This document shows positions 210 to 50,788 of a stretch of 64,000 bases of DNA, piece by piece; position 1 is the stretch's first letter, and every line of letters begins with the position of its first letter. The notes under the pieces were generated by a model. That model was given only the letters and a program-made list of their open reading frames with translations, was not told the origin of the DNA and searched no databases. The translations under genes were made by a program, and so were the position numbers. Origin of the DNA: an uncultured Candidatus Saccharibacteria bacterium (lineage in GTDB: Bacteria > Patescibacteriota > CPR2 > UBA1875 > CAIMLA01); assembly GCA_964594415.1 (NCBI GenBank), contig CAZQLQ010000005.1:96-64095 (forward strand), read 5' to 3'.

Positions 210-359
210 ACACAGTCAACTAAAGAGAAGGCAATAAGCCTCAGTAGTTGACAAAGTTCATTGAAAACTGGCTAATAAAATTTTCCTTCGGGCAATCACT
301 GCTCTTTATATAGTTGCAATGCTTATATTCCAAGAAATGAAATACTTAAAGGAGTGATA

Positions 360-1463
360 ATGATGGAAGGAAGTATAGTAATAATAAATGGAAAGGCATA
401 CCGGAGAGATACCGGTGTGCAGGTAATCAACACGGAAGTTCCTAATACTCCTCCCGCCCCTGCAGCACCTGCTGCGGTAACTGCTGCGCCAACCGGAAAA
501 AAGAAAAACCCATGGAAATGGGTTGCAGGCGCGGCTTTAGCCGCGCTGCTGTTGCTGGTAGGCTGGATGATGTTCGGCCGCTACTGCGGCCCGAACTTCG
601 TAGAAAACGGGATCACCCCCCAGGGGGGGTGGACTGCTGAGTATGCAGAATATCAGCAGAGCCCCGTACTCCGGGCGGCCTTCAACCACCTTCAGGTGGT
701 TGATGAGCAGGAAATTAAAGATCTCGTGGCGCGTGAGCGCCGCGGGGAAAGTTTTGTCCAGTCCCTGCCTGCAGGGACTGTGATAAAAAACACGGAGGTA
801 ACGGAGGAGGGCTTCAGGGTATTTGATTACACCCTGAAGCAAGAAACCCAGATCCTCGTAGATATGAACGGGAATCCTGCAGTCAAGTTGGACTGTGGGA
901 ATCCCATAAAGCTGGTGCCGAAGCCAGTGGTTTCGACACCAGTAGTGAAAAAACAAGTTGTACAACAACAGACTTCCGTAGAACAGAATGTTGTTGTACA
1001 GCAAAATGTTGTTGTACAAACGGTTGTACAACAACTCCCTGATGTGATCAGAAATGTGATCATCAGGGAAGAAGATGACCATCATTCTCATCGTCGGACT
1101 TGTGACGATGACGATGAGGATGAGGATGAGGATGAAACGGAGTGCGTGGTTGATCCTGAGGATCAACACGCATCATGGAATCCTTCCACTCAGCCGGTGC
1201 AGGAGAATATTGCACCTCAGAAATCTGAGTGGATTGAGGAAAACGAAAGAGCTCAGCACGCTGAGTTTGTTCGGGAGTCCCAGCAAATACAATTTGCTGG
1301 GGAAAATGGACAGGCCACATATGGTTCTGTCCATGAAGAGGTGGGTAGAAATATAACTCCTTCGGGAGTTGTTGAGCCTACTCCTGAATCAACTGAGAAC
1401 TGGGATACTACAACTTATACAGATGTAGGTATCCCAGCAGGGTGGGTTTTAAAGCCCCAATAA
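360..1463 (+). CDS. GC-rich single-pass membrane protein of unknown function. It has a Pro/Ala-rich N-terminal region, one TM helix, a VVQQ-repeat region and a DEDEDEDE acidic tract. It is compositionally foreign.
   Basis: The ORF track gives 354..1463, which is a GTG start. An ATG at 360 with SD 'aaggag' 5 nt upstream is the more likely start. The hydrophobic helix is WKWVAGAALAALLLLVGWMMF. The coding GC (about 50-55% by eye) contrasts with about 33% elsewhere. Confidence 0.6.
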   Translation: MMEGSIVIINGKAYRRDTGVQVINTEVPNTPPAPAAPAAVTAAPTGKKKNPWKWVAGAALAALLLLVGWMMFGRYCGPNFVENGITPQGGWTAEYAEYQQSPVLRAAFNHLQVVDEQEIKDLVARERRGESFVQSLPAGTVIKNTEVTEEGFRVFDYTLKQETQILVDMNGNPAVKLDCGNPIKLVPKPVVSTPVVKKQVVQQQTSVEQNVVVQQNVVVQTVVQQLPDVIRNVIIREEDDHHSHRRTCDDDDEDEDEDETECVVDPEDQHASWNPSTQPVQENIAPQKSEWIEENERAQHAEFVRESQQIQFAGENGQATYGSVHEEVGRNITPSGVVEPTPESTENWDTTTYTDVGIPAGWVLKPQ

Positions 1464-46349: not shown

Positions 46350-46976
46350 TTGATGAGTAGGGTCAATTTTCAATCATTGTCTGACAATGTTATAGAGAAG
46401 CTTTTTCTTTGGGCAATACCTAAATGGCTTAGGCCAAACCCAATATCTATTAGCAGGATTATTATGGCTCCGTTTGTGCTGATTTTACTGTCCAGAAGAA
46501 GCTATTTTTTAGGAATATTGCTCTTTATTTTTGCAGTATGTACTGATTTTATTGACGGCGCACTTGCCAGAAAAAGAGATCAGGTAACAGATTTGGGTAA
46601 AATACTTGATCCAATCGCAGATAAGGTTCTTATTCTCTCAATATTTTTATTCATAGGATTTGATTATTTAATCGTTTATGTTTTTACAATATTTGTAATT
46701 CTTGAGGTTATTGCAGTTATTTCAGGCGCGGCTTTTTCTGAGTTTGTTGGAAGACCTATCGGAGCAAATCTTTACGGAAAGATAAAAATGATACTCCAGA
46801 GTAGCAGTCTTTTTCTTTTTTTGGCGGGGATTGCTCTGGGGAAGGAACAGCTTATCAGTATATCAGAGGGGGTATTGGTCGTTGCTCTTCTATTTGCCCT
46901 AATCTCTGCAATCGAACAAATTTACAACAAGATAAGGTTCCTTAAAACTGATAAAAATTTTAAAAAAATGCCATAA
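46350..46976 (+). CDS. CDP-alcohol phosphatidyltransferase (PgsA-like)
   Basis: 'DFIDGALARKRDQVTDLGKILDPIADKV' is the canonical D-G-x2-A-R...G-x3-D-x3-D motif. Confidence 0.75.
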   Translation: MMSRVNFQSLSDNVIEKLFLWAIPKWLRPNPISISRIIMAPFVLILLSRRSYFLGILLFIFAVCTDFIDGALARKRDQVTDLGKILDPIADKVLILSIFLFIGFDYLIVYVFTIFVILEVIAVISGAAFSEFVGRPIGANLYGKIKMILQSSSLFLFLAGIALGKEQLISISEGVLVVALLFALISAIEQIYNKIRFLKTDKNFKKMP

Positions 46977-46979
46977 AAA

Positions 46980-47007
46980 AGAGCCCCGGCATGGGGCTCT
47001 TTTTTTC
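46980..47007. terminator. Bidirectional intrinsic terminator between the convergent pgsA-like and rplL genes
   Basis: agagccccg-gcat-ggggctct hairpin flanked by A6 and T7. Confidence 0.75.
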
Positions 47008-47028: not shown

Positions 47029-47559
47029 TTATTGAAGTTCTACTGTTGCGCCAGCTTCAGTAAGCTTTGTTTTAGCGTTTTCAGCGTCTTCTTTCTTCAT
47101 ATTTTCTTTTACTGTTGCAGGCGCACCGTCTACTAGATCCTTAGCTTCTTTTAGGCCAAGTTCTGGTAGAATCTCTCTAACAGCCTTGATTACGGCAATT
47201 TTGTTTGACCCTGCGCTAGTAATAACTACATTGTAAGCGCTTTTTTCCTCTTCTTGAGGAGCAGCAGAACCAGCAGCAGCGGGCATAGCCCCCATCATAA
47301 CTGGTGCGGCGGCAGATACACCGAATCTGTCTTCAAGAACTTTTACAAGTTCAGACAGCTCGAGTACGCTCATATTCTCAATAGTTTTTACAAGGTCAGC
47401 AAATTTTCCAGTTACTTCAGTCTTTGCTGGTGTAGCTTCCGCTGCTACAACTTCTTTTACTTCTTCTACAGCCTCTTTTGCTTCCTCAACAGCGTCTTTA
47501 GCTTCTTCTACAGACTCCTCGGCAGCTTCAATAGCTTCTTTTACTTCTTCATTTGCCAT
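47029..47559 (-). CDS. rplL: 50S ribosomal protein L7/L12 with a ~50-aa acidic N-terminal extension
   Basis: Residues 51-176 ('[33 protein letters not shown]...[26 protein letters not shown]...') are canonical L7/L12. Residues 1-50 are an Ala/Glu/Val/Lys low-complexity extra segment. Confidence 0.8.
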
Positions 47560-47569
47560 GATAATTATT

Positions 47570-47743
47570 TTACTCCTCTTCTCCGTCTTCGTCAGACTCT
47601 TCCTCTATTTCGTCATCTTCTTCGTCAGACTCATCTTCTTCATCTAACTCTTCTTCATCTTCATCGATCTCTTCTACGTCTACGTCTTGTTCTACTTCTT
47701 CAGTTTCCATGTCCTCTTGTTTTTCTAATTCTTCGTCTGGCAT
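47570..47743 (-). CDS. Possible 57-aa hyper-acidic micro-protein
   Basis: ATG at 47743 with SD 'aGGAG' 4-5 nt upstream. Product: [57 protein letters not shown]. Not in the ORF track because it is under 60 aa. Confidence 0.3.
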
Positions 47744-47797
47744 AATACTCCTTTCTGCTTGTTAGCATTGCCTTTTGGCATTAATTAATATACTTTC

Positions 47798-47881
47798 TTA
47801 TTCTTTTTCGGCAAACTCGTCTTTGGTTTGCTCCTCGGTTGACTCTTCGTCATCGTTATCTATTTTTTCTTCTTCTGCCAA
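47798..47881 (-). CDS. Possible 27-aa acidic micro-ORF
   Basis: TTG at 47881 with SD 'aaGGAGG' 5 nt upstream. Product: (M)AEEEKIDNDDEESTEEQTKDEFAEKE. Confidence 0.2.
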   Translation of the reverse strand: MAEEEKIDNDDEESTEEQTKDEFAEKE

Positions 47882-47932
47882 GCTTGCCTCCTTTCTTTTT
47901 ATTATTAAATAAAAAACTGAAAATTCTCTTAA

Positions 47933-48454
47933 TTATTTTTGATTCTTGATCGCGTTTAATACATTTAATAGATTTCTGGTATTGCCTGATAAAACATTGA
48001 CAAGCCCAGACAGCGGTGATGCGATTGAGCCGACAATCTTTGCATAAAGATCTTCTTTAGAAGGAAGCTTGGCTAAAGACTTGACCATAATATCGCTAAT
48101 TTCTTTGCCTTCTAACACGCCACCGATAATTTCTAATTTATCGTTCTTTTTTGCAAATTCGTATGAAATTTTTGCAGGCGCAACTTCATCAGCAGTTCCG
48201 AAGGCAACAGCTACGGGGTGCCCCTTCACTGCCGTTTCGTTAATTTCAATACCAGCTTCTTTTGCAGCTATTTTAAAGAGCGTGTTTTTTATTACTTTAA
48301 ACTCGATTCCTTCTTTTCTGAGATTATTTCTAAGTTCATCTAGTTCCTCAACGCTAAGACCCCTATAGTCGGTAAATACCGCTGACTTGGAAGTCCTAAG
48401 CTTTTCTACAAGCTCTGCTACTAATTCTTCTTTTTTAACTTTTGTGATTGCCAT
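47933..48454 (-). CDS. rplJ: 50S ribosomal protein L10
   Basis: 'AITKVKKEELVAELVEKLRTSKSAVFTDYRGLSVEELDELR'. Confidence 0.9.
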   Translation of the reverse strand: MAITKVKKEELVAELVEKLRTSKSAVFTDYRGLSVEELDELRNNLRKEGIEFKVIKNTLFKIAAKEAGIEINETAVKGHPVAVAFGTADEVAPAKISYEFAKKNDKLEIIGGVLEGKEISDIMVKSLAKLPSKEDLYAKIVGSIASPLSGLVNVLSGNTRNLLNVLNAIKNQK

Positions 48455-48483
48455 GACTGTACTCCTACGTTTTATTAAAAAAA

Positions 48484-48503
48484 TCTTCGCGTAACCGAAG
48501 ATT
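48484..48503 (-). promoter_or_regulatory. Hairpin plus U-tract in the rplJ leader, about 30 nt upstream of the start (putative attenuator or L10-leader element, or glyA terminator)
   Basis: atcttcg-cgtaac-cgaagat stem followed on the minus strand by T8, then the SD 'aggag' and ATG. Confidence 0.45.
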
Positions 48504-48659
48504 AAAATAACTAAATTACTTTATCCTCGGTAGCAAATTAAGTCTAGTTGTGCTGACAGCTACTGTCTACGGAATATTTTATTTACAGAAATTCTCTATT
48601 TCTTGACTACAACAATTTATCAAAAATTTAATCTAAAGTCAATACTTTTAATCCTGTTA

Positions 48660-49880
48660 TTATTTAATTCCCGGAACTGGGTATTTTTCGCAAATCTTAA
48701 AAACATCTTCTCTGATTTCGCTATAAACTTCTTCACTCCCGATATTTTTAAGAGTTTTTACAATTAGTTTGGCAATTTTTGTAACATCCTCCTCCTTGAA
48801 ACCGCGAGAAGTAATAGCAGCAGTCCCAATTCTTATACCGCTGGTAACAAATGGGCTTTCTGGGTCATTTGGGATAGCATTTTTATTGACCGTAATTCCT
48901 ACCTTGTCGAGTTCTTCTTCGGCAACTTTTCCGGTTGTTTTTAGTTTTCTAAGATCTAATAAAATCAAATGATTATCACTACCACCAGAAACCATATCAA
49001 TATTTTCGTCATTAAAAACCTTTTCCATTGCCTTTATGTTTATAAGTATGTTTTTGGCATAAGTTTTGAATTCGGGTCTGAGAGCTTCGCCAAAGGCAAC
49101 AGCTTTAGCTGCAATAACATGTTCAAGGGGCCCGCCCTGGATGCCTGGGAATACCGCTTTATCTATCTGTTTTGCGTATTCGTCTTTACAAAAAATTACT
49201 CCTCCCCTAGGTCCCCTCAGAGTCTTATGTGTCGTTGTGGTAACTATATCAGCATAAGGAATCGGTGATTCATGCAAACCAGTGGCGACCAACCCTGCTA
49301 TGTGAGCCATATCAACCATTAATTTTGCGCCTACCAAATCAGCGATTTGCTTAAACCTCTTAAAATCAATTACTCTTGGATAAGCGCTTGCTCCTGCCAC
49401 AATCAGCTTTGGTCTGTGCTCTTTTGCAAGTTTTTCCAAATTAGTATAGTCAATCCTTCCATCGTTTCCAAGGCCATACGAAACAAAGTTATATAACTTT
49501 CCCGAAAAGTTAACAGCGCTTCCATGAGTAAGATGGCCACCTTGATCTAAAGATTGGCCCAAAACAGTATCCCCTGGCTCAAGAAGGGCGAAATAAACTG
49601 CCATATTTGCTTGAGCTCCGCTATGTGGCTGAACATTAACATGATCCGCTCCGAAAAGCTTCTTAGCCCTTTCAATAGCAATTGTTTCAATTGCATCTAC
49701 ATTTGTGCAACCGCCGTAATAACGATGATAAGGAGTTCCTTCCGCATATTTATTTGTAAGGATTGAACCGGTAGCTAAAAGTACTTCCTCTGAAACATAG
49801 TTTTCGCTCGCAATGAGTTCAATTCCATTTTTTTGTCTTTGCTTCTCTTTTTCTATTAGATTAAAAACTTCCTTATCCAT
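48660..49880 (-). CDS. glyA: Serine hydroxymethyltransferase
   Basis: '[27 protein letters not shown]' and PLP-lysine '[14 protein letters not shown]'. Confidence 0.9.
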
Positions 49881-50788
49881 TATTCACCTCTTAAATTTGT
49901 TAATTTATAAGCCTTTAGAACATTTGATAGTAGCATAGCAACGGTCATTGGTCCTACTCCGCCTGGATTTGGCGTGATGAATGAGGCATTTTTGGCAACG
50001 TTTTCAAAATCAACGTCTCCAGCTACCCTGCCATCAATAAATGATGTGCCGACATCTATTACAACAGCGTTTTTGCTCACCATCCCCTTCTTTATTAGTT
50101 TTGCCTGACCGGTAGCAGAGATGATAATCTCAGCGTTTTGGGCTAATTCTTTGAGATTTCTTGTCTTTGAATTTGCTATCGTAACCGTAGCTTTTTCTCT
50201 AAGTAAAAGTAGGGCCAATGGCTTTCCTACCAGATTACTTTGACCGACTACGAGCACTCTTTTTGACACAAGAGGCACCTGGTAGTACCTCAAAAGGTTT
50301 ATTATTCCTTCGGGCGTAGCAGGGCAAAGCCCATCGAGTCCTTTTGCTAGTTTACCGAGATTTGTCGAACTCAAACCGTCAACATCTTTGTTAGGGGAAA
50401 TGCTTTCGAGTATATTATTTGTATCAATTTCCTGAGGAAGAGGTAACTGCATAATTATACCGGTTATTTTCGGATCTTGATTCAGTCTTGCTATTACATC
50501 AATAATTTTCTTTTCAGATACACTTTCTTTAAATTTTATAACCTTAAAGCCGATGCCAACTTTTTTGCACGCTTGTTTTTTGATATTGATGTACTTCAAG
50601 CTAGAATCATCATTGCCAACAACAACTACAGCAAGTGTTAGCTTAAGCTTTTCTTGCTTAATCTCCTTGCCTAGTTCTTCCTTGATAATTAAAGCTAGTT
50701 CTCTGCCTGACATCAGTACCATTTTATTTCTCCAAAGTAACATATTTGTAAGCGTAATTATTTGTTTTTTGTAATTTCGATTCCTCAA
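49880..50788 (-). CDS. folD: Bifunctional methylenetetrahydrofolate dehydrogenase/cyclohydrolase
   Basis: '[28 protein letters not shown]' and '[16 protein letters not shown]'. Confidence 0.85.

Follow-up and report, generated by a model that had tools for sequence, protein, structure and literature searches.

A hyperacidic small open reading frame between rplJ and rplL and an N-terminal extension of bL12 in an uncultured Patescibacteria-like bacterium

The L10-L12 stalk of the ribosome recruits all translational GTPases, and the junction between rplJ and rplL, the genes that code for these two proteins, is among the most conserved gene junctions of bacteria. What, then, does it mean when this junction is opened by several hundred nucleotides (nt)? 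We analysed such a case in a 64,000-nt stretch of DNA (the window, from here on) from an uncultured Candidatus Saccharibacteria bacterium (assembly GCA_964594415.1, contig CAZQLQ010000005.1, positions 96 to 64,095 of the forward strand). A preliminary description, made from the sequence of the window, had pointed to an expanded rplJ-rplL spacer with two acidic open reading frames (ORFs), each preceded by a Shine-Dalgarno (SD) sequence, and to an acidic N-terminal extension of L12; it left open whether these belong to one unusual stalk architecture or are GAA-repeat DNA of low complexity. The spacer insert and the extension are both real, uncharacterised and unlike the archaeal and eukaryotic stalk. 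As a whole, we consider it rather probable that an old helical extension of bL12 was joined by a younger insert, whose larger ORF would be translated and would feed ribosomes to rplL. Unless another locus is named, coordinates are positions in the window, where the genes of the stalk operon all lie on the minus strand.

The insert between rplJ and rplL

The locus, from an uncultured Patescibacteria-like bacterium, is a ribosomal stalk operon made up of an L10 leader, rplJ, rplL and a terminator. rplJ (47933-48454), preceded by the SD sequence AGGAG, codes for a uL10 of 173 residues (Pfam Ribosomal_L10, PF00466, 2.5e-25), and rplL (47029-47559) for a bL12 of 176 residues that matches both the Ribosomal_L12_N and the Ribosomal_L12 C-terminal domain. 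From the stop codon of rplJ to the ATG of rplL the spacer measures 373 nt (47560-47932). Among 79 such gene pairs of other bacteria, the median separation was 45 nt and the largest 277 nt, so that the gap in the window is at or beyond the extreme of the sampled pairs; the expansion reported in the preliminary description is thus confirmed. These pairs came from a scan of genome contigs with L12, which was dominated by the universal KEAKDLVD pattern and yielded distant loci only. Gaps of 250-280 nt, next to a canonical short L12, were seen in metagenome-assembled genomes (MAGs) of Acidobacteria (L022, L039, L063).

The loci of relatives were retrieved through exact-protein look-ups of the nearest L12 and L10 homologues. 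An insert was found in three lineages, represented by six samples: the window itself; a lineage sampled four times (L081, L082, L083 and L123), in which a 380-nt spacer holds a 29-codon ORF starting with TTG and a 63-codon acidic ORF; and L120, whose contig begins within the acidic ORF, the spacer being therefore partial and only the last 30 codons of the ORF present. In L084, L085/86, L087, L121 and L124, which are without the insert, rplJ and rplL are 10-11 nt apart, and in L122 the gap is of 103 nt and contains no ORF. A scan of metagenome contigs with L10 gave one close locus, that of L087. The product of rplJ has 173 residues in all close relatives, a constancy which indicates that the insert left this gene unaltered.

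Identity among the carriers of the insert is 78-81% for L10 and 91% for the L12 core, as compared to 68-76% and 83-86% between the carriers and the insert-less group. On the basis of these identity matrices, the carriers are each other's closest relatives. A single insertion in their common ancestor would be the simplest history, and an artefact of assembly is excluded by the presence of the same arrangement in independent assemblies. When the window was compared with L081, the proportion of synonymous sites that differ (pS) amounted to 0.76 for rplJ and 0.68 for rplL. Such values mean saturation of these sites, and neutral DNA of equal age would be expected to be randomised. We also observed that L10 is more divergent among the carriers than within the insert-less sister group (86-91%), with the L12 core of the carriers at the 91% given above, and it may be that L10 is evolving faster where the insert is present. 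Within the four-sample lineage, L081 and L082 differ by 7.5% in rplJ (2099-2620 in that pair) and by no more than 1% in the spacer and rplL, as if recombination had made a mosaic of the operon.

The larger of the two ORFs in the spacer, named ORF57 (47570-47743), starts with ATG and has 57 codons; 40 of the 57 residues are Asp or Glu (70%) and one is Lys or Arg. Its SD sequence, AAAGGAG (47748-47754), lies 4 nt (TATT) before the ATG, and L081 keeps it as CAGAAAGGAG. No other stretch in the six frames of the window comes near ORF57 in acidity, and hyperacidity is therefore not a habit of the whole genome. Elsewhere in the window, strong acidity was seen in one place only, a CDDDDEDEDEDETE run inside a 369-residue protein (354-1463, plus strand).

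The counterparts of ORF57 are the 63-codon ORF of L081, L082, L083 and L123 and the truncated ORF of L120. Between the window and L081, CAGAAAGGAG, the ATG, an open acidic frame, a similar length (57 vs. 63 codons) and an Asp/Glu content of 59-70% are kept, and GAAGAGGAGTA at the 3' end of the ORF is invariant in all three lineages. In both full-length lineages the acidic frame alone is open, the other two forward frames being full of stop codons; after mononucleotide shuffling, the probability of an open frame was 0.022 and 0.012 for the two acidic ORFs. With the acidic ORFs of the window and L120 anchored at the stop codon, their 30 final codons showed 6, 4 and 17 differences at codon positions 1, 2 and 3, respectively, as compared to 8, 5 and 50 in rplL of the same pair. 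Both of the differences between the acidic ORFs of L081 and L082 are synonymous. The ratio of non-synonymous to synonymous divergence (dN/dS) of ORF57 is about 0.2, a soft value, since the alignment of such low-complexity sequences is ambiguous. Considering that the SD sequence, the start, the frame, the length and the excess of third-position differences were kept in spite of saturation, ORF57 is most likely a coding, translated gene.

What appears to be selected in ORF57 is the acidity of the product and not its exact sequence. Codon positions 1 and 2 are nearly fixed as G and A, while the third position is A in 31 codons, G in 10, C in 9 and T in 8. A G-A-N pattern with all four bases in third place points to selection on Asp and Glu, and not to a purine-rich RNA or a slippage repeat. 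The preliminary suggestion of GAA-repeat DNA does not hold, since all four bases are used at third positions and Tandem Repeats Finder (TRF) detected in ORF57 only weak periods of 6, 9, 18 and 33 nt with 60-84% match; a simple trinucleotide repeat was rejected because no high-identity 3-nt units in head-to-tail order were found. The densest acidic part is the C-terminal one (residues 24-57). The ORFs of the window, L081 and L120 end in SDEDGEEE, IIKEEEE and SEEDGEEE, respectively.

Neither ORF57 nor the smaller ORF of the spacer, ORF27, gave a Pfam match at E<=1. An exact-sequence look-up of ORF57 returned no record, a result that is uninformative, given that the window's own L12 was missed as well. 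The preliminary description had also raised the possibility that a frameshift would fuse the pieces into L10 or L12. No conserved frameshift or read-through fusion was found, and fusion was rejected because the frame of ORF57 relative to rplL differs in the window, in L081 (same frame, with one TAG in between) and in L120; moreover, the N-terminus of L12 is orthologous to that of the insert-less relatives and L10 keeps its 173 residues.

The position of ORF57 also bears on the start of rplL. In 57 genes of the window, SD-type motifs (GGAG) start at -12 to -8, and the SD sequences of ORF27 (-10) and ORF57 (-8) are within this norm; the earlier account of two ORFs preceded by SD sequences was correct in both their coordinates and their description. 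The sole SD-like motif upstream of rplL is GAGGAG (47573-47578), formed by the last two codons before the stop of ORF57 (last codons GAA GAG GAG). It lies 13 nt from the rplL ATG in the window, 11 nt in L120 and 15 nt in L081, and at -19 to -17, inside ORF57, it is poorly spaced. The stop codon of ORF57 precedes the rplL ATG by 10 nt in the window, 12 nt in L081 and 8 nt in L120. The carriers gave up the well-placed AGGAG that precedes rplL in the sister lineages, and this loss is notable, since L12 is required in 4-6 copies per ribosome. The only SD-like motif being inside ORF57, and the stop codon being only 8-12 nt from the ATG, the translation of rplL is probably coupled to that of ORF57. 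Like known coupled gene pairs (PMC6728339, PMC10666635), ORF57 and rplL are on the same strand, are a short distance apart and have the downstream SD motif inside the 3' end of the upstream frame. They differ from these pairs, which overlap by 1 or 4 nt, in being 8-12 nt apart, and the upstream partner is an orphan mini-ORF and not a subunit of a known complex.

The N-terminal extension of bL12

The 3' part of rplL (47029-47406) codes for a canonical bL12, with a dimerisation domain, an Ala/Pro/Met hinge and a C-terminal factor-binding domain, as shown by Pfam and AlphaFold2. PF16320, the N-terminal dimerisation and L10-binding domain, covers residues 54-98 (E=6e-18, 64.7 bits vs. a cut-off of 25), and PF00542, the C-terminal factor-binding domain, covers residues 109-176 (E=3.7e-28). 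In the AlphaFold2 model, obtained with 39 homologues, the canonical domains are predicted with high confidence, the C-terminal domain having a predicted local distance difference test (pLDDT) score above 90, and the hinge (residues 80-108) is disordered. The protein is thus a member of the bL12 family and a length variant of it: it has 176 residues as compared to about 120-130 in the canonical form, and does not begin at the canonical start, a few residues before helix 1. The additional sequence, which is about 49-51 residues long, corresponds to residues 1-51 (47407-47559) and is supported by 21-nt repeats, a predicted helix and an in-frame alignment of the 39 homologues.

The start of the long form is fixed by the reading frame itself. 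No in-frame ATG, GTG or TTG is present in rplL between codons 1 and 63, and M63, which the preliminary description took as matching the canonical start, falls within helix 1 of the dimerisation domain, some 11 residues from its beginning. Translation therefore has to include the extension. A search with L12 gave thousands of matches; among the best 120, about 100 are 145-226 residues long and have an alignable extension, so that most of the closest homologues do not start at the canonical position. Their N-termini are in frame with that of the window (M-[AST]-[DE]-EEVK-TEEVTEAVEAAEEAVEEAK..., a PAKEEK-type linker, then GKF...). In the insert-less relatives the ATG of the long form comes 10-11 nt after the stop codon of rplJ, with AGGAG in between, 5-7 nt before the ATG. 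As judged from these alignments, the extension is an old, clade-wide trait, separate from the spacer insert. The proposal that the extension and the spacer ORFs make up one stalk architecture was not borne out, the insert being limited to a narrow clade and younger; the comparison of relatives, which the same description had proposed, showed the acidic frame to be kept among the carriers and the extension throughout the clade.

The DNA of the extension contains five copies of a 21-nt unit (TRF). In the protein, residues 3-41 form five heptads, with I10, V17, V24, V31 and V38 at position a and V6, A13, A20, A27 and V34 at position d. AlphaFold2 predicts these residues as one helix with low pLDDT, as expected for an isolated helix, and residues 42-51 are a linker of Ala, Thr, Pro and Lys ahead of the dimerisation domain.

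The start of L12 is annotated inconsistently in public records, some of which truncate the extension in this clade. One cluster at 90% identity holds both a 190-residue form (P0124) and an NCBI-annotated 136-residue form (P0045) of the same gene; the annotation of P0045 begins at an internal Met and drops the extension, which other gene callers retain. In the candidate phyla radiation (CPR) bacteria, bL12 has been listed among the larger ribosomal proteins, with no further detail on bL12 and with a warning that the extra N-terminal sequence could be an artefact of wrongly assigned start codons (Tsurumaki et al., 2022; PMC9297842). The bL12 of the window resembles these enlarged proteins in being longer through extra N-terminal sequence. 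Its extension is distinguished from them (PMC9297842) by being unavoidable, homologous across the clade and built of heptads, and the lack of an alternative start, together with the SD sequence before the long form in relatives, allows the artefact caveat to be set aside for this clade. Unrelated N-terminal extensions of low complexity occur in bL12 of other bacteria, namely in an Ignavibacteria MAG (L062, 2836-2983, where 49 residues rich in Lys and Glu follow a good SD sequence), in Campbellbacteria (L009, 417-540) and in L044 and L064. Their presence in other phyla indicates that N-terminal growth of bL12 is recurrent and not unique to the clade. Among the L10 homologues, P0213 (257 residues) and P0135 (224 residues) are over-long, one of them having metallophosphoesterase domains (PF12850/PF00149); the extra length could be due to gene fusion or to a gene-calling artefact on short contigs.

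The preliminary description had compared the acidic sequences to the stalk P proteins of archaea and eukaryotes. In P1 and P2 the dimerisation domain is at the N-terminus; the acidic tail comes after it, at the C-terminus, and closes with a hydrophobic motif that binds factors. What ORF57 shares with P1/P2 (aP1) is a highly acidic, flexible segment tied to the GTPase-recruiting stalk. In other respects it is different: it is free-standing, ends in GEEE, has no dimerisation domain of the Ribosomal_60s type (no Pfam match at E<=1), and with 70% Asp and Glu in 57 residues it has no room for a folded domain. A terminal hydrophobic motif, as generally defined, is absent from the ends of ORF57 and of the L081 and L120 acidic ORFs. 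Since ORF57 has neither an anchoring domain nor such a motif, and the extension of L12 is N-terminal and helical, the analogy was abandoned.

ORF27 and the surroundings of the operon

The smaller ORF of the spacer, ORF27 (47798-47881), starts with TTG and has 27 codons; 13 of the 27 residues are Asp or Glu. Its SD sequence, AAAGGAGG (47887-47894), is located 5 nt (CAAGC) before the TTG. The 17-nt block GAAAGGAGGCAAGCTTG, which includes the SD sequence, the short spacer and the TTG, is identical in the window and L081 in spite of the saturation of synonymous sites. ORF27 is homologous to the 29-codon ORF of L081 (z=6 vs. shuffles). The peptide is acidic in the window and its L081 homologue is basic, so that of the two ORFs initially described as acidic only ORF57 has this property conserved. 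The dN/dS of ORF27 is about 0.64 and its open-frame probability after shuffling is 0.27. The change of charge, the dN/dS and the unremarkable open frame make its coding status doubtful, and ORF27 is more likely a regulatory RNA or ribosome binding site (RBS) element than a functional peptide.

A possible RNA hairpin, with 6 base pairs and a 9-nt loop, was noted in the 3' part of ORF27 (47811-47831; 2726-2746 in L081). Its arms are GCAAAC / GUUUGC in the window and GCAAGU / ACUUGC in L081: all 6 pairs are kept, and 2 of them changed on both sides, in a comparison that comprises two distinct sequences only. In the predicted fold of the window, the 3' arm may alternatively pair with GGCAAGCUUG, that is the spacer and start codon of ORF27. 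We regard this hairpin as a lead and not as a finding. No terminator was predicted inside the spacer, and the Rfam scan of it gave no match except a chance 19-bit snoRNA. A weak promoter-like site (47814 to 47787, 9/12 matches) is present in the spacer; it was not relied on as an internal promoter because its equivalent in L081 is spaced by 14 nt.

Upstream of rplJ, an L10 leader (RF00557) was found at 48468-48590 on the minus strand (cmscan, 64.1 bits vs. a gathering score of 44, with the full-length model covered), containing a terminator-like hairpin followed by a U-run (48482-48503, minus strand). It is likely the autoregulatory attenuator of the entire operon. In operons of the Bacillus subtilis type, the L10 leader acts through transcription attenuation by L10(L12)4 (PMC4538822), and the window shares with them the full-length leader, the terminator hairpin with its U-run, the order rplJ-rplL and a terminator after rplL. 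This last element, read from the sequence, is a GC-rich hairpin between an A-run and a T-run (46980-47000, not assigned to a strand); it is a bidirectional terminator, serving rplL and a convergent gene for a CDP-alcohol phosphatidyltransferase (46350-46976, plus strand). An ordinary rplJL operon has a tight rplJ-rplL junction, as do the sister lineages of the window, whereas here 373 nt and two SD-led ORFs separate the genes, rplL is without a well-placed SD sequence of its own, and the operon follows folD-glyA and not rplKA.

The Pfam families of the neighbouring genes were taken from syntenic loci. folD-glyA (48660-50788, minus strand) precedes the stalk operon in place of the usual rplK-rplA and tgt comes after it, an order kept in close relatives (L081/L084); in L085/86 and L122 a DEAD-box helicase region is found upstream instead. 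The only relatives with a name are a 'Patescibacteria group bacterium', a 'candidate division WS5 bacterium' (59% identity in L10) and Berkelbacteria (72% identity in L12). The frame at 47254-47745 on the plus strand, antisense to rplL and ORF57 and with a low-complexity translation rich in Ser, Phe and Leu, is an artefact, as already recognised in the preliminary description.

Possible roles of the insert

In the account that we favour, bL12 opens with about 40 residues of acidic heptads, which would form one long helix, followed by a linker rich in Pro, Ala and Lys and then by the dimerisation domain. About 360 nt would have been inserted, in one event in the carriers' ancestor, in place of the usual junction (TAA, AGGAG, 6 nt, ATG). 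The insert would be younger than the extension, yet old enough for synonymous sites to be saturated between carriers. It would carry a genuine translated small gene, ORF57, of 57-63 codons, whose acidity is preserved by selection. Most of the ribosomes that make L12 would then reach rplL by way of ORF57, the two being coupled by termination-reinitiation or by initiation aided by the upstream ribosome. Selection on acidity argues against a role of ORF57 in ribosome delivery only, since any ORF could deliver ribosomes. Its role would most likely be that of a disordered polyanion, co-produced with L10 and L12; this is favoured because 57-63 codons are maintained and the densest acidity is C-terminal. 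An effect of the nascent chain or leader on the expression of rplL may be considered as the alternative. A fuller version, to which we give only a slim chance, would see in ORF57 a free, hyperacidic ribosome-associated polyanion of 57-63 residues (net charge about -39), produced in step with bL12, which might serve uL10 and further basic proteins of the ribosome as chaperone or RNA mimic, or might compete with the L10 leader and thereby tune autoregulation, while the heptad helices of bL12 would bundle dimers into a stalk architecture unseen in solved ribosomes.

Several observations weigh against the favoured account. The insert is known in only three lineages; in one of these it is truncated, and in another the four contigs, those of the L081 type, are almost the same sequence. 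The case for translation of ORF57 is made from the sequence, the similarity between ORF57 and the 63-codon ORF of L081 is not above that of composition-preserving shuffles, and a HMMER search (phmmer, 5.8 billion proteins) gave no homologues of ORF57, missing also the ORF of L081. Coupling may be only partial at a stop-to-start distance of 8-12 nt: in E. coli and Haloferax, termination-reinitiation weakens sharply as stop and start move apart, and little of it is left when about 20 nt separate them (PMC10666635). The promoter-like site in the spacer could supply rplL with an independent transcript. Finally, nascent chains with a D/E-rich N-terminus cause pausing or abortion of translation in E. 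coli (bioRxiv 10.1101/2021.02.02.429294; PMC11282234), so that efficient passage through ORF57 is not guaranteed.

This last point leads to the explanation in which ORF57 would be a cis-acting leader ORF, similar to MgtL: its hyperacidic nascent chain would pause or destabilise ribosomes and gate rplL according to Mg2+ or to the status of translation factors, the free peptide having no function. In E. coli, D/E/P-rich sequences in the first 30 residues or so cause pausing or abortion that responds to Mg2+ and to EttA, a protein of the ABC-F type, and the MgtL leader exploits this effect (bioRxiv 10.1101/2021.02.02.429294; PMC11282234). ORF57 shares with the acidic leader peptides (MgtL, intrinsic ribosome destabilisation, EttA-dependent genes) the form of a short upstream D/E-rich ORF, with Pro near the N-terminus, directly before the gene that would be regulated. 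Its N-terminus, rich in Asp and Glu and with a Pro, falls in the stretch of 30 initial residues over which E. coli ribosomes are most strongly affected (bioRxiv 10.1101/2021.02.02.429294; PMC11282234); its stop codon is 8-12 nt from the ATG of an rplL that has no well-placed SD sequence, and selection acts on acidity and not on sequence. Known acidic leader peptides are, however, short, while 57-63 codons are kept here. As compared to MgtL, ORF57 is three to four times longer, is acidic throughout and has no evident RNA switch downstream, and its likeness is read from sequence. Its densest acidity falls at residues 24-57, when the tunnel is already filled, a placement that is 'cryptic' in E. 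coli (bioRxiv 10.1101/2021.02.02.429294). It would also be risky for the most abundant ribosomal protein to depend on an ORF that is hard to translate, and the N-terminus of L12 itself is acidic across the wider clade, whose ribosomes evidently cope with such sequences. All in all, we regard a leader function as unlikely, if well worth considering.

The remaining two explanations deny ORF57 a role as a gene. The insert might be tolerated junk, either what is left of a partial duplication that took in the 5' end of rplL (SD sequence, start and acidic extension) and has since decayed, or a GAN tract expanded by slippage; its ORFs would be translated by chance, if at all, and only the rplL-proximal GAGGAG would matter. 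In fact, ORF27 (MAEEEK), ORF57 (MPDEEL) and L12 (MANEEV; MSDEEV in relatives) start alike, with M-x-[DEN]-E-E, each after AAAGGAG; ORF57 compared with the L12 N-termini of relatives gave z=1.7-1.9 (p=0.05-0.06); weak tandem repeats of 18 and 33 nt are present in ORF57; and the charge of the ORF27 peptide is not conserved. The likeness to the rplL 5' end, on the other hand, is indistinguishable from what composition predicts, both with peptide shuffles and when the start-anchored DNA identity is set against in-frame interior windows. A neutral insert at saturated synonymous divergence should lose its frame, its SD sequences and its 3-nt periodicity, and in compact genomes of the Patescibacteria type, where sister lineages keep a 10-nt junction, the retention of 370 nt in every carrier lineage points to a function. 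Junk is thus distinctly improbable. Least probable, in our opinion, is a spacer that acts mainly as RNA, in which a structured or processing element (for instance the ORF27 hairpin, whose alternative pairing would block the start of ORF27) and, after it, an unstructured, purine-rich landing pad would uncouple the stability and translation of the rplL mRNA from rplJ, giving the 4-6-fold excess of L12, with the ORFs as by-products. The hairpin with two double-sided changes between lineages, the 17-nt identical block, which exceeds the needs of the ORF27 RBS, and the folding of the window spacer, better than that of shuffles (z=-3.6), are in favour of it. The covariation comes, however, from two sequences only, the spacer of L081 folds with z=-1.3, no Rfam family matches the spacer, and neither the G-A-N periodicity nor the third-position bias of ORF57 is expected under a constraint at the RNA level.

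If ORF57 were only a tolerated insertion, it would be a curiosity of one genus-level clade. The result on the extension corrects the truncated L12 starts in public records, and a clade-wide, coiled-coil-like acidic helix on bL12 bears on the number and arrangement of L12 dimers on L10. In one lineage, an orphan hyperacidic mini-gene that appears to be maintained by selection sits exactly where the translation of L12 is set. The locus thus offers a test case for how bacteria reach an L12:L10 ratio of 4-6:1, and for whether extremely acidic nascent chains, which destabilise the ribosomes of E. coli, are tolerated or exploited elsewhere.

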